Origin: Salinivirgaceae bacterium
GTDB taxonomy: Bacteria > Bacteroidota > Bacteroidia > Bacteroidales > SZUA-534
DNA length: 64,000 bases
Direction: 5' to 3'
Assembly: GCA_050179685.1 (NCBI GenBank)
Contig: JBFXEW010000007.1
Location: 79,223-143,222 of the forward strand
Position 1 is the stretch's first letter. The number at the start of each line of letters is the position of its first letter. Under the pieces are notes generated by a model. That model ran no database searches. It was given only the letters and a program-made list of their open reading frames with translations, and was not told where the DNA came from. The position numbers and the translations under genes are program-made. Below, one piece after another: positions 1,688 through 42,354 of this stretch.

Positions 1688-2739
1688 CTTATACGCTTGC
1701 TTTGATTCTCTATTTTATTGTTGCGCTCACCCTTAGTTTGCTCATGCACCGCTTTTTTGTAATCCGCGCCGAGCGATATAAAATAAAAAAAGCCAACACA
1801 TCAGCCGAACGATGGAGCAGTCAAACCAAGCCAATTTTGGGCGGGCTTACATTTTACGCCTTGTTTTTAATGGGGGTTCTCACCTATTTCATTTTTTTCG
1901 ATGCACAAAATTTATTGCATCCTGAGGTGCTTGCTACAATTCTGGTTGTAACTATAGGTTTCTTAATGGGCCTTGCCGACGATATGCTGAATACACCTCC
2001 CGGATTTAAATTTGTTTTTCAGGTACTAAGTGCTTTAATTTTAATCTACTCCGGATTATACATTCAGGTTTTCGAAAACTTTTGGCTGAATTATGGCTTA
2101 ACCCTGTTTTGGGTGGTTGGTATCATGAATTCACTGAACATGCTCGATAATATGGATGCAGTAACCACTTCGGTAACCTCAACCATTTTAGCGGGTTCAT
2201 TGCTTGTACTTGCATTTACTGATTCCTCGGCTGGTGTTTTCTTTATTATTGCTCTGGCAGTTTTTGCTTCATTACTTAGTTTTTTATACTACAACTGGAA
2301 TCCGGCAAAAATGTATATGGGCGACAATGGCTCACAATTCCTGGGTGCATTTATGGCCATTATCAGTATTAAGGTTTTTTGGAATGCTCCCTCGGTGAAC
2401 GATTTTTCAAATTGGTTTCCTTTCCTGTTTGCTTTTTTAGCATTTGTTGTTCCGATATCCGACACCAGTTCGGTTACTATAAACCGCTTGCTGCGGGGAC
2501 AATCGCCTTTTATTGGGGGCCGCGATCATACCACTCACCATTTATCGTACCTTGGCCTTTCTGACCGGGGCGTAGCCTTGGTTTTGCTTACATTAAACGC
2601 AATTTTTACCGGTCTGGCTGTTTTTATGATTCTCGATCCAAACCAAACAATTATAAATCATTGGTTGGTAGGAATAATAGCCTTGTTGGTGGGTATAACC
2701 CTTTATGCAATTACCAAAATTTCGAAGCCAAAAAAGTAA
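1684..2739 (+). CDS. MraY/WecA-family (glycosyl transferase family 4) undecaprenyl-phosphate sugar-1-phosphate transferase
   Basis: Polytopic membrane protein with motifs 'GLADD', 'NSLNMLDNMD', 'YMGDNGS' and 'DRDHTTHHL'-like 'RDHTTHHL'. ATGA overlap with the wzc stop. Confidence 0.88.
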   Translation: MTYTLALILYFIVALTLSLLMHRFFVIRAERYKIKKANTSAERWSSQTKPILGGLTFYALFLMGVLTYFIFFDAQNLLHPEVLATILVVTIGFLMGLADDMLNTPPGFKFVFQVLSALILIYSGLYIQVFENFWLNYGLTLFWVVGIMNSLNMLDNMDAVTTSVTSTILAGSLLVLAFTDSSAGVFFIIALAVFASLLSFLYYNWNPAKMYMGDNGSQFLGAFMAIISIKVFWNAPSVNDFSNWFPFLFAFLAFVVPISDTSSVTINRLLRGQSPFIGGRDHTTHHLSYLGLSDRGVALVLLTLNAIFTGLAVFMILDPNQTIINHWLVGIIALLVGITLYAITKISKPKK

Positions 2740-2790
2740 ACCTTTTCGCTCTTTAGCGGTATACAAGTCAAACAATTTTATCTCAATACT

Positions 2791-3747
2791 ATGTTAAAAC
2801 AATTCGTTGTAATTGGAAGTTTCTCGTTTTTTATTGTGGCAGCCATAATTATTTTAACTGCATCATCGACAAATGAACAAGCCGACCATCAAAATTCACC
2901 TTCGTTTAATCCACATTACGCCATAACACCCGTTCCAATACCCGACAAAATTGCATTTGCCGGTGAAGAAGTTCCCGTTGGAAATTTCGATGTATTTGAA
3001 AGTCTCGACCGCGAGATGCTGGTAAATACTTACTGGCAATCGCAAACGCTGCTATTAATAAAAAAAGCTCATCGCTATTTTCCGCTCATTGAGCCCATTC
3101 TTAAAGAAGCAGGCGTCCCCGACGATTTAAAGTACCTGGCTGTTGCCGAAAGTGGTTTGGCAAATGTAGTATCACCGGCTCGTGCCGAGGGTTTTTGGCA
3201 GTTTCTTGATGGCACCGCACGCGATTATAAACTGGAAGTAAACAGCGAAGTGGACGAGCGCTATCATGTTGAAAAAGCAACATTTGCCGCGGCTCAGTTT
3301 TTAAAAGAATCGTACCAAAAATACGGAACCTGGACCATGGCAGCGGCATCGTATAATATGGGCCGTCGAAATATAAGTCGCCAAATCGACCGACAAAAAT
3401 CAAGTAATTATTTCGATTTGGTTCTGGGTGAAGAAACCGGACGTTATGTTTATCGGCTGGTAGCCTTAAAACTAATTATGGAAAATCCCGACAAATACGG
3501 TTTTTACATTAACGACAAGCAAAAATACCAAAGCATAAAATATACACTGGTCGAAGTAGATACTACAGTAACAAATCTGGCCGATTTTGCTCACCAGATG
3601 GGAATTAATTACAAAGTACTGAAAGAATTAAACCCGTGGTTACGCGACGATAAACTAACCAACAAAACAGGAAAAAAATATCAGATAAAAATTGCGGATA
3701 CCACTTTACGAACCGTGGTTCCGGATACTTTATTTTACAAAAAATAA
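2791..3747 (+). CDS. Lytic transglycosylase (SLT domain, MltD-like) with C-terminal LysM-like segment
   Basis: Motifs 'AVAESGL', 'GFWQF' and 'AASYNMG'. N-terminal membrane anchor; 'LADFAHQMGINYKVLKELNPWL' is LysM-like. Confidence 0.85.
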   Translation: MLKQFVVIGSFSFFIVAAIIILTASSTNEQADHQNSPSFNPHYAITPVPIPDKIAFAGEEVPVGNFDVFESLDREMLVNTYWQSQTLLLIKKAHRYFPLIEPILKEAGVPDDLKYLAVAESGLANVVSPARAEGFWQFLDGTARDYKLEVNSEVDERYHVEKATFAAAQFLKESYQKYGTWTMAAASYNMGRRNISRQIDRQKSSNYFDLVLGEETGRYVYRLVALKLIMENPDKYGFYINDKQKYQSIKYTLVEVDTTVTNLADFAHQMGINYKVLKELNPWLRDDKLTNKTGKKYQIKIADTTLRTVVPDTLFYKK

Positions 3748-3867
3748 TAGGGCCCGGAATCAAAATCACAAACCTGTTGAAACAAAAGCTTTGCTGAATT
3801 TGTATCTCAGTCCGGAGTTGTTATTCATATATTTATTGAGGTAACTTAAATTATCCAAAACTCTCAA

Positions 3868-3875
3868 TATCTTTG
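3868..3875 (+). promoter_or_regulatory. Bacteroidota -7 promoter box (TATCTTTG) of uvrA
   Basis: Exact TAnnTTTG match 14 nt upstream of the uvrA ATG. Confidence 0.7.
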
Positions 3876-3889
3876 CCCATATTTTAAAA

Positions 3890-6733
3890 ATGCCTGAAAT
3901 GGAAAGTCACATCGAAAACGATGAAGAAATAAAAGTATACGGAGCCAAAGTACACAACTTAAAAAACATCGATGTTACCATTCCCCGAAATAAACTCACG
4001 GTTATTACCGGTTTAAGCGGAAGCGGAAAATCGTCGTTGGCTTTTGATACCATTTATGCCGAAGGGCAGCGCCGCTACATGGAAACCTTTTCGGCTTACG
4101 CCCGTCAGTTTTTGGGCAATATGGAGCGCCCCGATGTGGATAAGATTACCGGCTTAAGTCCGGTAATTTCAATTGAGCAAAAAACCACAAACAAAAACCC
4201 ACGCTCAACGGTGGGTACCATCACTGAAATTTACGATTTTCTGCGCCTGCTTTTTGCCCGGGCTGCCGATGCCTATTCGTTTAATACCGGCGAAAAAATG
4301 GTGAAATACACCGACGAACAAATAACCCAGCTGCTGATTGAAAAACTCAACGGTAAAAAAATATATATTCTCGCCCCGCTGGTTCAAGGACGTAAAGGTC
4401 ACTATAAAGAACTTTTTGAACAGCTTATAAAAAAAGGCTTTATTTATGCCCGCATCAACGGAAAAGTGCTGGATTTAAAACCCGGATTGCGGCTCGACCG
4501 ATACAAAACGCACAACATCGAAGTGGTTATCGACCGCTTATTGATTGATGATAAAGATGTAAAACGCATTCGGGAATCGCTGCAAATAGCCATGAAACAA
4601 GGCGAAGGCGTTACTTTGGTTTTAGATGCAGAATCGAACGAGTTGCATTATTTCAGCCGTCACCTGATGTGCCCAACCACGGGCATTTCGTACAACGAAC
4701 CCGCACCTCACACCTTTTCTTTTAATTCGCCGGTAGGAGCCTGTCCCAAATGTAAAGGACTGGGCATCATTAACCAAATAGATTTAGATAAAGTAATTCC
4801 CGATCCCAAACTCAGCATAAAAAAAGGAGGCATTGCCCCGCTGGGAAAACACAAAAGCAACCTAATTTTCTGGCAAATTGAAGCCATTGCCGATAAATTC
4901 AAATTTAAACTCGATACGCCCATAAAAGATATTCCTGAAGATGCACTCGATGCAATTTTAAATGGTTCCGACGAACCTTTTAAATTACAAAACACGCCTT
5001 TAGGAAATGCATCGAATTATTTTTTAAGCTTTCCGGGAGTATTAAGTTACCTTCAGGCTGAACAAGGCGACGAAGCTATCAGCGAATCGAGAAACGGGCG
5101 TTTTCAAAACTACATCAGCGAATCAACATGCCCCGAATGTCAGGGAACCCGCCTAAGAAAAGAAACCTTGTTTTTTAAGATTGCGAAAAAAAACATTGCC
5201 GAACTTTCACAAATGGATATTGGAGCCTTGGCTGAATGGCTGAATGGCGTTGAAGATAGAATGAGCTCAAAACAAAAACAAATTGCTACGGAAATTCTGA
5301 AAGAAATCCGTTCCCGATTGGGCTTTTTGTTGCAGGTTGGTTTAAATTACCTGTCGTTAAACCGTTCGTCTAAATCTCTATCGGGTGGCGAGAGTCAGCG
5401 CATCAGGCTGGCAACGCAAATTGGTTCGCAACTGGTTAATGTTTTGTACATTCTCGATGAACCCAGCATTGGCTTGCATCAGCGCGATAATCACCGCCTG
5501 ATAAATTCATTGAAGGAATTGCGCGATTCCGGTAATTCGGTAATTGTTGTGGAGCACGATAAAGACATGATTCTATCGGCCGATCATGTGGTTGATATTG
5601 GCCCTATGGCCGGACGAAACGGAGGGAAAATTGTTGCCCAGGGAACACCAGCCGACATTCAGGCTTCCTGCTCGCTTACTGCCGAATACCTGAACGGCCA
5701 TAAAAAAATTACAATTCCCGAAAAACGACGCGAAGGAAACGGAAAAAGCATTACAATAAAAGGAGCCAGCGGGCATAACCTGAAAAATGTATCGGTAAGC
5801 ATTCCTTTAGGGAAATTTATTTGTGTTACCGGAGTTTCGGGAAGTGGCAAATCGAGTTTGATAAACGAAACCCTGCATCCCATATTAAACAAGCATTTTT
5901 ACAACGCTTTAAAACAAGCGCTTCCCTACAAATCGATTCAGGGAATTGAGCATATCGACAAAGTTATTGAAGTAAATCAATCGCCTCTGGGAAGAACCCC
6001 ACGGAGCAATCCGGCTACTTACACCGGTGTTTTTTCCGATATACGCGATATTTTTGCCCGCCTACCCGAAGCCCAGATTCGCGGTTATAAACCCGGGCGC
6101 TTTTCGTTTAACGTAAAGGGCGGACGCTGTGAAACCTGCAAAGGTGCGGGAGTTCAAACTATTGAAATGAATTTTTTACCCGATGTTTATGTGCATTGCA
6201 ACGAATGTCAGGGACGCCGTTACAACCGCGAAACCCTTGAGGTTCGTTACAAAGGAAAATCGATTTCCGATGTGCTCGACATGACCATAAACCGCGGGGT
6301 TGAATTCTTTGAAAATGTTCCCAAAATTTTACAGAAATTAAATGCGCTCCAGTCGGTTGGATTAGGTTACATAACACTGGGCCAGGCCTCAACAACGCTA
6401 AGCGGAGGAGAATCGCAGCGCGTAAAACTGGCCACCGAACTGTCGAAAAAAGATACCGGACGAACCCTGTATATTCTCGACGAACCCACAACCGGCCTGC
6501 ATTTCGAAGATATCAGGGTACTGCTTAAAGTTCTTAACAAACTGGTAAATAAAGGCAATACAGTAATTGTAATTGAACACAACCTCGATGTAATTAAAGT
6601 AGCCGACCACCTTATCGACATTGGGCCCGAAGGAGGCGACGCCGGAGGAAAAATTCTTTTTGAAGGAACACCCGAAGCATTGGTTAAATCGGGAAAGGGC
6701 TATACTTCGCAATTTTTAAAAGACGAAATGTAA
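3890..6733 (+). CDS. uvrA: Excinuclease ABC subunit A
   Basis: Two ABC cassettes ([26 protein letters not shown] twice), zinc-finger Cys pairs, 947 aa. Confidence 0.98.
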
Positions 6734-38189: not shown

Positions 38190-40055
38190 TTAAATTCCCA
38201 ACATTTTTTGAAATCCACTCAAAGTTTCCAGCACATTGCTCTTCATGTGTATGAAATGCTCCAGGTGGGCTGCTTTCAGTTCATCGATGATTTCGACCGG
38301 ATAGCCGGCTACCACCACGGGAATTGAACCAGCCTGGCTTTTAACCTGAGGGGCAAAAACGGCGTACTCTTCGTCGGAGCTACAAGCTACAATTATATCG
38401 GCTTTTGCAGCAAGAGCTTCGTTCATACCCTCAGAAACTTCGCAATAACCTTTGCCTTCGAGCACTTCGAATCCGGCTGCGGCAAAAAATCCGGCAGCAA
38501 ACTGGGCCCGGGCTTTGCGCATCACCAAATGACCAATGGTAAGCAAAAATACCAACGGACGTTTGTGAGTCAGGGCAAAGGTGTCGGTTTTGTAGCGCAA
38601 GGCTTCAAAAGCCATGGCTCCCCGATAAGCGGTAAGGGGTTCAATTTCAAAAGTTGTAATCTGAGTTTGCTCAAGTAATTGACTGGCCAGTTCCTTGTCG
38701 ATATGTTCGTTGATGTTGGGATACTGATTCACTCCCAGGATTATTTCCTTGCGGGTAGCAATATCAGCATCGCGTTTTGATGCGGTTTCTTTAATTTGCT
38801 TCTGTACAAAGCCTTTTTCTATGGCCGCAGTAAAACCACCCAGATTTTCGACCTCAACAAAAAGATTCCAGGCCTGCTCAGCTATATTGTCGGTAAGTGT
38901 TTCAATGTAATACGAACCGGCTGCGGGATCTACTGTCTTGTCGAAATGCGCTTCTTCCTTTAACAGGATTTGTTGATTGCGGGCAATCCGCTCGCTGAAT
39001 TCAGTGGGTTTTTCGTAGGCACTGTTAAACGGATTTACCGTAATGGAATCGGCACCGCCCAATACACCCGACATGGCCTCGGTTTGGGTGCGAAGCAGGT
39101 TCACATAGGGGTCGTAAATGGTTTTGTTCCATTGGCTGGTTACCGCATGAATGGTAGCCACACCTTTTTTTGAATCGGCGGGCTGATATTGTTTTACCAC
39201 TTGCGCCCATAAAAAACGGGTGGCTCTGAATTTGGCAATCTCCATAAAGTAATTGGAACCTATTCCCATTTCAAATTTAAGCGCTTGTGCAGCCTGGTCG
39301 GGTGAAATGCCTTTATCGGTAAGGCCTGCCAGGTATTCATTGGCAGCAGCCAGGGTAAAGCCGAGCTCCTGAACCAGCGACGAACCGGCATTCTCGAATA
39401 TATCGCCCCGAACTACCAGTGCTTTAAAGTTAGGCAGTTCATTTAAAGCTTTTACCAGTTGGGTAGCATCTTCCAATGCATCGGTCTGATTCTTTTTACC
39501 ACTTTTTAAGGGACAGGTTAGCGGGTCGAACGACAAGGAGCCGTAAACCTTAGCCTTGTCGATGCCCAGTTTTGAAACATAGCCTGTAAAAGCCGGGGCA
39601 ACGCTTAGGGCCGCATATCCGGCCACAAAGTTAATTTCTACCTGAGTAAGCGGAATGTTATTTAAAAGTACCTCCATATCGGAGCTTGTATACTTTTTTT
39701 CGTTGTCGAGCACAAAGCCAAGGGAGTTTACTCCTTTGCTAAGAATTTCGCGTGCTTTGGTGTTGGCTTTACTCAGGTCGAATTCTTTGATTTCCTGACG
39801 GATAAACCAACTTGCTTCGGTTTTGTTTCCACGAACAAAAGGAAACTGACCGGGTGTCCCATTAAGGTGACCCAGCTTTTCGAGGTGCTCGCTCCGATAG
39901 TATGGCTGCACCTTAAAGCCTTCGTTTGTGCGCCAAACCAGCTTTCGCTCGTAATCGGCGCCTTTCAGATCAGCAACGATCTTTTCTTCCCACTCCCGGG
40001 TTGTAACAGGCGGAAACTGAGTGAATAATTTCTTGCCTTTATCCAATTCTGACAT
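38190..40055 (-). CDS. mutA: Methylmalonyl-CoA mutase, small subunit
   Basis: 'LFTQFPPVTTREWE', 'NLLRTQTEAMS' and 'DPAAGSYYIE'. Lacks DxHxxG; lies upstream of the large subunit. Confidence 0.93.
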   Translation of the reverse strand: MSELDKGKKLFTQFPPVTTREWEEKIVADLKGADYERKLVWRTNEGFKVQPYYRSEHLEKLGHLNGTPGQFPFVRGNKTEASWFIRQEIKEFDLSKANTKAREILSKGVNSLGFVLDNEKKYTSSDMEVLLNNIPLTQVEINFVAGYAALSVAPAFTGYVSKLGIDKAKVYGSLSFDPLTCPLKSGKKNQTDALEDATQLVKALNELPNFKALVVRGDIFENAGSSLVQELGFTLAAANEYLAGLTDKGISPDQAAQALKFEMGIGSNYFMEIAKFRATRFLWAQVVKQYQPADSKKGVATIHAVTSQWNKTIYDPYVNLLRTQTEAMSGVLGGADSITVNPFNSAYEKPTEFSERIARNQQILLKEEAHFDKTVDPAAGSYYIETLTDNIAEQAWNLFVEVENLGGFTAAIEKGFVQKQIKETASKRDADIATRKEIILGVNQYPNINEHIDKELASQLLEQTQITTFEIEPLTAYRGAMAFEALRYKTDTFALTHKRPLVFLLTIGHLVMRKARAQFAAGFFAAAGFEVLEGKGYCEVSEGMNEALAAKADIIVACSSDEEYAVFAPQVKSQAGSIPVVVAGYPVEIIDELKAAHLEHFIHMKSNVLETLSGFQKMLGI

Positions 40056-40080
40056 AGTGACTGTTTTAGAAATTAAAGTG

Positions 40081-40088
40081 CAAAATTA
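40081..40088 (-). promoter_or_regulatory. -7 promoter box (TAATTTTG) of mutAB
   Basis: CAAAATTA on the + strand, 25 nt upstream of the mutA ATG. Confidence 0.65.
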
Positions 40089-40196
40089 CGAACCTTTATC
40101 AAATGCCGATCGGTAAAAAAATGTTTTTTGTCAGGGTTCGCTATTGCTTTTCGGGGTATTATGCCTGCTGGTTCGTCTGAGCGGCGGAAAGCAATG

Positions 40197-40488
40197 AAAT
40201 AAGCTGTTTTAAAACTGCTTAAAACAGGCAAGTTTTATCCTTAGTTTATTCACCCGGTACAATTCATTTGGCCTTTCCGTAGTGCTCCGGAAGCATCTCC
40301 CGTAACCAGGAGGTGTTTCCGTACTACTACGGAAGCGTCTCCCGTAACCAGGTGGTGCTTTCGTACAGCTACGAAAACGTCTCCAGTAAATTTTTAATCA
40401 TACCGTACTGCTACGAAAGTAGCAAATGGAAAATAGCCTGCCATATTATTACCGAAAACTAACTTGCAAAAATAAGCTGTTTTAAAAC
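40197..40488. repeat. 19-bp direct repeat AAATAAGCTGTTTTAAAAC (40197-40215 and 40470-40488) bracketing the 42-bp array
   Basis: Exact duplicate 273 bp apart, containing the GTTTTAAAAC palindrome. Confidence 0.85.
40275..40418. repeat. Tandem 42-bp repeat (3.5 units) built of alternating palindromes
   Basis: Units start at 40275, 40317, 40359 and 40401. Core TTCCGTA-N4-TACGGAA-like palindrome alternates with CTCC-CGTAACCA-GGAG. Confidence 0.9.
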
Positions 40489-40606
40489 CTCTGTTTTAAC
40501 CCACTCCGAAGTTTCAATGAGGGGGCTCACGCAACAGATTAAGTTAAACCAAAGTGTTGAAGCAGGTCTTTCCTTGTAGATTGAGCCTCGTTGATAATTG
40601 TTAAAT

Positions 40607-40753
40607 TAATGTCGTTTAGTTAAAGAAATTCACCCCTATAATCCCCTCAAGGGGATACCTGCAACGATGGAACAGAGCTAGTCCTTCCGCCGCGGCGGAG
40701 AGGTGCCCGCCTTGGCGGGCGGAGGGTGAAGTCTGCTTAACTAAACGACATTG
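40607..40753. mobile_element. MITE (147 bp, non-autonomous) with terminal inverted repeats and 10-bp target-site duplication
   Basis: AATGTCGTTTAGTTAA (40608-40623) and its exact reverse complement (40737-40752). ATTGTTAAAT on both flanks (40597-40606, 40754-40763). GC-rich internal hairpins and no ORF. Confidence 0.85.
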
Positions 40754-40956
40754 ATTGTTAAATTGATAAACTGCTAATGTCTTAAGTCTTAGGTCTAATA
40801 TCTAAGGTCTAAAGTCTATCATCCAAGGTCATTGATGATTAACGATGTTCAATTTTTGATGTCAGATCTTTGTTCATTGTCAACTGCACATTATTCATTG
40901 CTGTATGGCTGAAGACTGCCAACTGAGGGCTGAAAACTGACTATTGAAAACCGAAA
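40754..40956. repeat. Degenerate heptamer (7-bp period) tandem array, 29 units
   Basis: In-phase blocks: TAAGGTC-like x8, ATnnnnG-like x6, TTCATTG-like x5, ACTGAAA-like x7. Confidence 0.75.
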
Positions 40957-40993
40957 ACCTTACAAGGGCTTGGATCCCTCGTAAGATTTTCGG
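40951..40993 (-). terminator. Long hairpin, probable pgi terminator
   Basis: CCGAAAACCTTACAAGGG-7 nt-CCCTCGTAAGATTTTCGG, an 18-bp stem with 2 mismatches, 8 nt after the pgi stop. Confidence 0.65.
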
Positions 40994-41001
40994 ATATGCT
41001 T

Positions 41002-42354
41002 TTACAAGCGGGCTTTAATGGCTTTGGTTTCGTTTTCGAAACCCGGTTTTTCGAGTAAAGCAAACATGTTCTTTTTGTAAGCTTCTACTCCAGGCTGATC
41101 GAAAGGGTTAACACCCAGCAGGTAGCCGGAAATACCACAGGCAATCTCGTAAAAATAAATGAGTTGTCCCAGGTAATACTCGTTTAACATGGGCAGTTCG
41201 ATTCGCAGGTTAGGAACCCCGCCATCGACATGGGCAATAATGGTTCCCAGCTCGGCCATTTTGTTTACCTCGTCCATGCGTTTGCCGGCTAAAAAGTTCA
41301 AACCGTCGAGATTGGACGCGTCGGTATCAATTACCATTTTACTGTTGGGTTGCGCAATGGAAAGAACGGTCTCGAACAAGGCGCGCCGGCCTTCCTGGAT
41401 GTATTGTCCCATGCTGTGAAGATCGGAAGTGAAATCGACACTTGCCGGGAAGATTCCCTTGCCGTCTTTACCTTCACTTTCGCCATACAATTGCTTCCAC
41501 CATTCGGCAAAATAATGCAGTTTGGGGTTGTAATTCACCATAATCTCGATGTCTTTTCCCGAGCGTAGCAATGCATTTCGGGTAGCGGCATAACGCGCAG
41601 CCAGGTTTTGTTCAAAAGGCACCTCGGGTGCAGTCAGTTTCTCCATATCGGCGGCACCTTTCACCAAAGCACCAAGGTCGAATCCCGCGATGGCAATGGG
41701 TAAAAGTCCCACGGGTGTAAGCACACTGTAGCGGCCTCCCACATCATCGGGAATTACATAGGTTTTGTATCCTTCGCGGGTGGCCAGGGTGCGCAAAGCT
41801 CCTTTGCTGGCATCGGTAATAGCCACAATACGCTGTGCAGCGCCTTCTTTGCTGTATTTTTTTTCGAGATCGGTTTTAAGGATGCGAAAAGCAATGGCGG
41901 GCTCAGTGGTGGTTCCCGATTTTGAGATAACCACTATTCCCCAGCTGCGCCCATGGAGCATGCTGCGTAACTCAGTCATGTAATCTTCGCTGATGTTTTG
42001 TCCGGCAAATACCACCAGGGGATTTTTGCGTTCATTTAACTGGACAAAGTTATCGGAAAGGGCATCAATAACGGCCTTAGCTCCCAGGTAAGATCCTCCG
42101 ATGCCAATTACCACCACTATTTCGCAGTCTTTTTTAAAGCGATCGGCGGTTTGCTGAATGTCTTTCAGTTCTTCAAAAGTAATGGAAGTGGGCAGTTTAA
42201 CCCATCCCAAAAAGTCGTTTCCTTTACCGGTTTTTTGGTAAAGTGCCTCCAGATGTGCCTTGGTTTCATCGGCATAAGCCAGAACCTCGTCATTACGGAC
42301 AAAGTCGAGGGTTTTAGAGGTGTCGAGCAAAATATTTCCCAATTTACTGTTCAT
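41002..42354 (-). CDS. pgi: Glucose-6-phosphate isomerase
   Basis: 'GIGGSYLGA', 'SKSGTTTEP', 'DVGGRYSV', 'QLYGESEGK' and '[12 protein letters not shown]'. Confidence 0.97.

Follow-up and report, generated by a model that had tools for sequence, protein, structure and literature searches.

A block-ordered heptamer tract downstream of pgi in a Salinivirgaceae genome is probably an old copy of a dispersed family of non-coding repeat mosaics

RESULTS

A tract of 7-nt units between a mutase gene and pgi

We analyzed a stretch of 64 000 nucleotides (the window) from contig JBFXEW010000007.1 of a Salinivirgaceae bacterium (Bacteroidota) and characterized a tract of 29 consecutive 7-nt units. The tract lies in a 946-bp non-coding gap between a methylmalonyl-CoA mutase family gene and the glucose-6-phosphate isomerase gene (pgi). 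All features of the locus are collected in Table 1. The genome (termed G000) has a size of 4.56 Mb, 40% G+C and 50 contigs, is Salinivirgaceae-like and is 86% coding; genes were called crudely as ATG-initiated open reading frames (ORFs) of at least 70 aa. Two congeners were used for comparison, the Salinivirgaceae metagenome-assembled genome (MAG) G004 (contig JBFWMB010000034) and G005, whose pgi proteins are 94–95% identical to that of G000.

Table 1. Features at the heptamer tract, with positions in the window. Unit numbers are given for the studied genome (G000) and for the orthologous tract of its congener G004.
Feature	Position	Strand	Units in G000	Units in G004	Remarks
Methylmalonyl-CoA mutase family gene	38190–40055	−			PF01642, E = 7.9e-149; left neighbor of the gap
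Array of 42-bp units	40274–40419	.			Tandem Repeats Finder (TRF) period 42, 2.8 copies; further units (families D2, D4); separate from the heptamer tract
Invariant segment	40501–40583	.			83 nt, no differences seen to G004 by direct sequence comparison
Original left end of the tract	40590–40606	+			GTTGATAATTGTTAAAT; C-type units, before insertion of the mobile element
Target-site duplication, left copy	40598–40606	+			TTGTTAAAT; last 9 bases of the original left end
MITE (miniature inverted-repeat transposable element)	40607–40754	+			148 bp; ends TAATGTCGTTTAGTTAA and TTAACTAAACGACATTGA; GC-rich internal hairpins
Heptamer tract	40754–40956		29		units of 7 nt
Target-site duplication, right copy	40755–40763	+			TTGTTAAAT; most of units 1–2 as first listed
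Linker	40764–40774	+			TGATAAACTGC; joins the C-type tract start to block B
Block B	40775–40830	+	8	3	consensus TAAGGTC; 'A' family (AGACTTA) inverted; TRF period 7, 6.4 copies; 35-nt gap in G004
Block C	40831–40872	+	6	4	degenerate units, consensus ATTTTTG / ATTGATG; 14-nt gap in G004
Block C′	40873–40907	+	5	3	consensus TTCATTG, the genome's commonest family (CATTGTT); 14-nt gap in G004
Block D	40908–40956	+	7	7	RCTGNNN (GCTGAAG ACTGCCA ACTGAGG ...); 1 nt extra in G004
Terminator-like hairpin and T-run after the pgi stop codon	40951–40993	−			18-pair stem, 7-nt loop, tail TTTTCAATAG; also inverted repeat I4
Glucose-6-phosphate isomerase gene (pgi)	41002–42354	−			PF00342, E = 3.2e-28; the tract follows shortly after its stop codon

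Cutting every 7 nt from the first position of the tract reproduces the 29 heptamers of an earlier listing, made from the letters of the window and referred to here as the original prediction. Sequence identity within the tract is 0.541 at lag 7, 0.49 at lag 14 and 0.47 at lag 21, with values around 0.25 at other lags. The lag-7 identity lies far above dinucleotide-preserving shuffles (z = 8.5; n = 2000, mean 0.271, sd 0.032, maximum 0.383), and the tract is the strongest short-period signal of the whole window when lags 2 to 30 are scanned. Units share 4.2 of 7 bases within a block and 1.7 of 7 between blocks, a contrast that none of 5000 permutations of unit order reached. Both the periodicity and the block-wise change of consensus that had been predicted are therefore confirmed. 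TRF calls period 7 in blocks B and D: the repeats are head-to-tail 7-nt direct repeats, as in arrays of the types known as short tandemly repeated repetitive (STRR) sequences and long simple sequence repeats (LSSR). Adjacent units in block B differ by 1–3 bases, and block D behaves more as a conserved module than as a fresh tandem array. At its right border, units 28 and 29 (ATTGAAA ACCGAAA) run into the terminator hairpin of pgi, overlapping tail and stem.

A MITE interrupts the left edge of the tract

A 20-nt inverted repeat (pair I3, 95% complementary, at 40604–40623 and 40737–40756) closes a GC-rich, hairpin-rich segment at the left edge of the tract. The segment has more than 20 matches in the genome, with about 17 intact copies of 121–148 bp, and more copies occur in the congeners; the aligned flanks of 12 copies define its ends as TAATGTCG...CGACATTGA. 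Target-site duplications of 9 bp were found at ≥6 copies (TTGTTAAAT, ATCTGAAAT, ATTAACAAT, TTGTTAATT, TTGTTCATT and ATTAGGTAT), and the orthologous locus of G004 is an empty site with an uninterrupted ATTGATAATTGTTAAATGGCTAAACTG. The segment thus carries the marks of a MITE: terminal inverted repeats, a target-site duplication, many copies and an empty site in a relative. From the empty site and the duplication it follows that units 1 and 2 of the 29 consist of the last base of the MITE (40754) plus the target duplication, and that the tract began near 40590. Of the predicted four blocks over 29 units, the block structure is therefore real, but the first two units do not belong to the array. 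The statement that the tract holds no cargo stands in so far as there is no gene at the locus; it had missed the MITE.

Among 12 inspected copies of the MITE, 6–7 lie inside heptamer arrays of the CATTG/AATTG type, and heptamer tracts make up only 4.3% of the intergenic DNA. The MITE appears to prefer such arrays as targets. A longer element with the same ends, which could be the autonomous partner, was not found in the assembly.

Whole units are gained or lost between congeners

The synteny of the locus is kept in G005; the G004 contig carries the 42-bp array and the conserved segment upstream of the tract and ends before the mutase gene. Between G000 and G004 the tract differs by whole units in blocks B, C and C′ (Table 1), as is typical of STRR/LSSR-type arrays in close relatives. 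A count by eye puts the divergence of aligned units at about 11% of positions, which is similar to the surrounding non-coding DNA except for 40501–40583. Indels of 5, 2 and 2 units in three blocks, together with substitutions at about the rate of the flanks, indicate that the tract changes by whole units at scattered places and not in a polar fashion, and that the units are old. The original prediction had named an ordinary variable-number tandem repeat with unit turnover as the outcome that would speak against it, and the whole-unit indels correspond to this outcome. It had also proposed that the phase is kept across blocks. This allows only a weak test, since no phase can be set between consensus units that are unrelated, and the 1-nt insertion inside block D of G004 shows that the overall 7-nt register is not strictly protected.

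In G005 the orthologous tract is reduced to a weak D-like and W-like remnant (family labels are given below), and the terminator stem is different. Conversely, a W-C-D mosaic of G005 is absent at the orthologous site of G000, and the arrays that come after one conserved gene differ between G000, G004 and G005. Metagenome pattern scans and an exact-protein look-up of pgi, carried out to find other strains, gave no match. Heptamer tracts also lie beside a duplicated gene in a polysaccharide-biosynthesis cluster (C2:152600–160300); the first 60 residues are identical in both copies of this gene, which resembles a cytidylyltransferase by eye, and the orthologous region of G005 is about 2.6 kb shorter.

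Heptamer tracts are numerous and mostly intergenic

A lag-7 scan of the genome found 165 tracts. Lags other than multiples of 7 gave 1–14, except for lag 22 (26 tracts), which is next to the lag-21 harmonic. With a finer scan we obtained 169–171 tracts covering 24.9 kb, compared with 1–16 at lags 5, 6 and 8–12. The genome-wide search for intergenic tracts with a 7-bp period that had been suggested in the original prediction thus returned about 169 of them, mostly free of ORFs: the mean overlap with ORFs is 7% (93% ORF-free), and tracts are present in 54 of the 243 gaps >500 bp. Many mostly intergenic arrays per genome are again a property of the STRR/LSSR type. The tracts draw on a vocabulary of 63 canonical units, the most widespread being CATTGTT (18 loci), ACTGGTT (17), AATTGTT (15), GCTCATT and AAGTCTT (13 each), and CACTTTT, CACTATT and AGACTTT (11 each). 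The longest near-perfect array of the genome (C22:71017–71520) holds about 50 copies of CCGTTCT/CCGTCTT and is preceded by shorter blocks of CCAGTAA, TTAAGTC and CAATGAA.

Tract ends were found within 30 nt of a stop codon in 49 cases and of a start codon in 18. Relative to the genes, the strand on which the unit families read as written (the upper-case strand, defined below) is sense in 20 and antisense in 31 cases at stops, and sense in 7 and antisense in 17 at starts; neither bias is significant, and there is no fixed strand relation, as in Xanthomonas (PMC4692102). Neighboring tracts (94 pairs) have k-mers in common in direct orientation only, with an inverted similarity of about 0. Across the order, hits to CATTGTT arrays are distributed unevenly: most of the 121 genomes had no hit, whereas 183 were counted in G000, 351 in G033 and 172 in G025.

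Blocks follow one order on one strand

We assigned the frequent units to six families, W (ACTGGTT), I (AGATTTT), A (AGACTNN), H (CACTNTT), C (CATTGYT) and D (RCTGNNN), and oriented the tracts by the upper-case strand, on which the families read as written in the order W>I>A>H>C>D. The great majority of blocks (454 of 490) lie on the majority strand of their own region. Transitions between blocks are strongly directional: the forward to reverse counts are 34:6 for I>A, 20:1 for A>H, 19:3 for A>C, 28:8 for H>C, 30:9 for C>D, 14:2 for D>W and 8:0 for W>I. The D block of the tract (GCTGAAGACTGCCAACTGAGG) occurs at 9 loci with ≤3 mismatches, always after a CATTG block. The junction from C to inverted A with which the tract starts (ATTGTTAAATTG...CTAATGTCTTAAGTC) is also present at several loci of G018, a genome from another genus of the family.

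On sequence grounds, the C-to-D part of the tract can be shown to have the canonical order, and the copies of the mosaic are, as far as their letters tell, related by descent. The shared order and the shared junctions indicate that the architecture at the locus was largely inherited from a dispersed mosaic and was not generated locally. A drift of the consensus specific to this locus, as originally described, is not supported, since the unit families recur in fixed order at up to 18 loci each and the C-to-D junction at 9 loci. In CATTGTT-rich genomes of other families the C-to-D composite gave short, weak matches only; conservation of the mosaics across families was therefore rejected, the composite being limited to the studied lineage.

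At C5:53264–54980 (locus L098, ∼2460–4180), three mosaic units of ∼500 bp stand in tandem and one 7-nt register runs through up to 35 units. In each mosaic unit a heptamer composite that stays in phase precedes two hairpin-rich modules, both of which are dispersed repeats (∼25 copies of module 1; ∼40 copies of module 2, which ends in a stem and then a run of T). Two of the mosaic units differ in length by 91 nt, that is 13 heptamers. Small ORFs of ∼75 aa between tracts on C5 and C33 were considered as genes and rejected: they are translations of repeated non-coding modules.

The original prediction had suggested templated or unit-wise addition. In such a scheme a telomerase-like reverse transcriptase or another polymerase would build the array unit by unit, and the blocks would record successive templates. 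The small heptamer vocabulary recurring at many loci and the polar order of the blocks would fit this mode of growth, as would the 1–3 differences between neighbors in block B, which exceed those of a fresh slippage duplicate. However, the differences to G004 lie inside three blocks (35, 14 and 14 nt) and not at one end, and the phase is broken there by a 1-nt indel. The units diverge at about the flank rate, hence are old and not newly made, and junction sequences common to several loci argue for the copying of whole mosaics. Furthermore, the only RVT_1 gene of the genome (C9:136453–137070) is distant from every tract. Taken together, we regard templated addition as extremely unlikely.

The tract is unstructured and has no cassette gene

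Rfam 15 at permissive thresholds gave only chance-level hits for 39900–41200 (mir-147, STnc630 and U4, all far below gathering scores), and a single sub-threshold hit (Acido-Lenti-1) at six other mosaic loci. RNA folding of the tract shows no excess of structure over shuffles on either strand (z = +1.1 and +0.9). As a class, the tracts have a mean folding z of +0.16 compared with −0.75 for other intergenic DNA (p = 3e-7). An identity as a repetitive extragenic palindrome (REP) or a bacterial interspersed mosaic element (BIME) was rejected, since the tract has no self-complementarity and no folding beyond shuffles.

These properties bear on the idea that the mosaics are functional, directional cis-elements that offer an unstructured single-stranded platform, as RNA or transient single-stranded DNA, to a protein. 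The reader could be an OB-fold protein with a 6–7-nt footprint, of the cold-shock or S1 type, or another dedicated binder; after stops and between cistrons it could serve transcript processing, insulation, or translation in the Shine-Dalgarno-poor Bacteroidota. A block order and a common strand fixed at >100 loci, the low secondary structure of the tracts, their preference for stops over starts and the amplification of CATTGTT in several distant families are all in line with such a role, and CspB binds heptamer repeats with one protein per heptamer (reviewed in PMC4679880). However, low structure is automatic for direct repeats that have no inverted partner, the orientation relative to neighboring genes is not strict, and unit numbers differ freely between copies. 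At orthologous sites the presence, absence and composition of the tracts turn over fast between congeners. A functional role of this kind is thus possible but unlikely.

A different proposal is that the tract is the leftover arm of a small mobile gene cassette whose cargo, a PF05635 gene ('23S rRNA intervening sequence protein', a four-helix-bundle family) or a similar accessory gene, has been lost. Cases that look like occupied cassettes do exist. One PF05635 gene (C19:13657–14016, E = 2e-35) lies from start to stop codon exactly within a TCTAAAC/TCTAAAT array (C19:13543–14114, locus L101), and another from a different family (G023:C126:6340–6645) lies between CATTGTT arrays; a nucleotidyltransferase gene (C43:1426–1746) and a HEPN-domain gene (C33:28288–28692) are each placed between tracts. 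However, a six-frame search of the whole genome found five PF05635 matches, none on contig C7, so that neither a gene nor a remnant is present there, and only the C19 gene among the five is embedded in an array, compared with 169 tracts. The arrays that flank it are in direct orientation, neighboring tracts are never inverted in any of the 94 pairs, and no inverted partner array of the tract was found within 40000–41100. The locus thus has neither a PF05635 gene between arms nor arms that are reverse complements. In addition, PF05635 genes are present in 96 of the order's 121 genomes, and their occurrence does not visibly follow the load of CATTGTT arrays. A simpler reading of the embedded genes is that arrays are favored insertion sites, as the MITE illustrates. 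We therefore consider the cassette arm very improbable, and the link to four-helix-bundle genes that had been drawn in the original prediction is absent at the locus and rare in this genome. The embedded gene on C19 is followed by a nucleotide-sugar dehydrogenase gene (by eye), its surroundings being the leader of a glycan operon.

Two further groups of genes were considered as partners. A family of uncharacterized all-helical proteins (22 genes, ∼220–350 aa, one member matching DUF6261) stands solitary in long gaps, for example at C3:188861–189604, C4:25697–26425, C2:186150–186884 and C22:72150–73073. A heptamer tract lies within 700 bp of 10 of the 22 genes, compared with 5.2% of all genes; tracts are present in 12% of gaps ≥300 bp. 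Because these genes sit in unusually long gaps, we rate this excess as modest, and it may simply follow from gap length; the genes were rejected as cargo. Eleven of the 22 also have an array of the 42-bp type (period 40–44) within 500 bp. A Y1 transposase of the REP-associated (RAYT) kind is present in the genome but was likewise rejected, being linked to other, GC-rich hairpins and not to heptamers. Its gene (154 aa, PF01797, E = 1.6e-28), in the region C3:119600–121700, has clusters of GC-rich hairpins on both sides in a REP/RAYT-like arrangement, with a 42-bp-period array upstream and a DUF6261-like gene downstream.

Flanks of the tract

The pgi protein has its nearest relatives in MAGs of Salinivirgaceae and Prolixibacteraceae. 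The array of 42-bp units, which lies upstream of the mutase gene, has two small hairpins per unit and about five copies in G004; the genome contains 52 tandem arrays with a period of 40–44 bp, each of distinct sequence. The segment 40501–40583 shows no visible difference in G004 while its surroundings are rearranged, and is followed there by a different insert of ∼130 bp. Nearby, a Bacteroidota promoter motif of the TAnnTTTG type was found on the minus strand (40474–40467). The segment may encode a small RNA or be an element that lies upstream of a promoter; it has no Rfam match.

DISCUSSION

Heptamer tandem repeats have been reported since 1990 in cyanobacteria and later in Xanthomonas, Beggiatoaceae and Bacteroidetes, and neither their function nor their origin is agreed upon. 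The STRR heptanucleotides of heterocystous cyanobacteria were reportedly the subject of a 1990 study by Mazel et al. The tracts described here resemble them in being heptanucleotide tandem arrays, intergenic and in many copies, with several unit families per genome. They differ in phylum and in units, and STRR are, by their usual description, homogeneous single-unit runs and not ordered mosaics. Ordered mosaics are familiar from pneumococcal BOX elements and enterobacterial BIMEs, which are dispersed, intergenic, and composed of a limited number of module types arranged in a defined order, with variable internal copy number. Their modules measure 30–60 bp and are palindromic or hairpin-forming; the modules found here, in contrast, are runs of 7-nt direct repeats without self-complementarity.

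The closest published relatives are other heptamer arrays. MacGregor (2015, PMC4679880) described TAACTGA arrays in Beggiatoaceae, Cyanobacteria and five Bacteroidetes and found no mechanism. Long arrays of Gramella forsetii and Aequorivita sublithincola stand together with other heptamer repeats in the same intergenic regions, while close relatives have shorter gaps without them. Like those assemblages, the tracts of G000 are tandem 7-nt direct repeats at many loci, mostly intergenic and with a patchy phylogenetic distribution. The units are different (CATTGTT, CACTTTT, AGACTTA, AGATTTT, ACTGGTT and RCTGNNN), and most repeats of 'Maribeggiatoa' lie just upstream of starts, whereas the ones studied here are more often at stops. 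Rehm et al. (2015, PMC4692102), who note the lack of a detailed literature on heptamer repeats and who cite the Calothrix STRR case, found Xanthomonas GGGAATC heptamers to be about 90% intergenic, nearer to the upstream ORF, without strand preference and variable in length and sequence between close species. All four features match the studied genome. However, the GGGAATC repeats and the GGGGAYT repeats of Nostoc (PMC4692102) are G-rich and capable of G-quadruplex formation, whereas our units, which are A+T-rich and lack G runs, are predicted to be unstructured. According to the accounts in PMC4692102 and PMC4679880, Mrazek, Guo and Shah (2007) attributed the excess of heptamers among simple sequence repeats (LSSR, 5–11 nt) to polymerase slippage, ∼7 nt being the stretch held by the polymerase. 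A fixed block order on one strand is not described in PMC4679880 or PMC4692102 as far as we found. In Bacteroidota, BrickBuilt of Porphyromonas gingivalis also combines a short tandem repeat with a MITE in an intergenic element (Klein et al. 2015, PMC4596501). Its 23-nt repeat lies inside the inverted-repeat ends, whereas the 148-bp MITE of our locus is separate, inserted into the tract with its own 9-bp duplication and missing from the empty site of the congener. The original assignment of the tract to a class of Bacteroidota repeats that is without an established mechanism is thus borne out.

We consider it probable that the tract belongs to a lineage-wide family of non-coding heptamer mosaics of the STRR/LSSR type, of which it is an old and partly decayed copy, and that it evolves by slippage. 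By analogy, the mosaics would be the Bacteroidota counterpart of cyanobacterial STRR, of LSSR with units of 5–11 nt and of the assemblages of mixed heptamers known from Beggiatoaceae, Cyanobacteria and Bacteroidetes. Whole-unit changes would arise by slipped-strand mispairing or unequal recombination, which keeps a 7-nt register without any selection for it, and blocks would result from local amplification of variant units. Copies may have spread through recombination between them or through mobilization of the whole mosaic. The MITE inserted later into the CATTGTT-like left edge. The tract most likely lacks a sequence-specific job and would act as a spacer that separates the pgi terminator from the region upstream of the mutase gene; it may have no function at all.

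Several observations do not fit easily into this picture. Slippage alone accounts neither for the same few unit families at many loci nor for the patchy occurrence of CATTGTT in distant families, and leaves the strict block order and the common strand unexplained. A signature of insertion was not found for any mosaic as a whole. The inversion of block B against the usual order is not fully accounted for either, and the difference in unit number may stem from gains in G000 or from losses in G004, G005 being uninformative as an outgroup.

A bolder version of the functional idea would take the mosaics as a directional, genome-wide platform for a dedicated single-strand binder with a footprint of ∼7 nt, and at the same time as landing sites for small mobile elements such as the MITE studied here, the four-helix-bundle genes and the nucleotidyltransferase/HEPN genes. 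Such a platform would be marked by the block order fixed on a single strand, the lack of secondary structure and the 7-nt length of the units. The mosaics would then belong to an undescribed repeat-plus-reader system present in several phyla. We think that this combination, binder and landing sites taken together, is improbable. If such a reader protein exists, it would explain a long-standing puzzle over a widespread bacterial repeat.

The tract is genuine but unremarkable for the studied lineage, and the locus adds no element of a new kind. The value of the genome lies in the quantitative facts that it supplies on this class of repeats. These facts constrain the hypotheses on its origin, as they speak against polar templated growth and against a general model of inverted cassette arms in this lineage.

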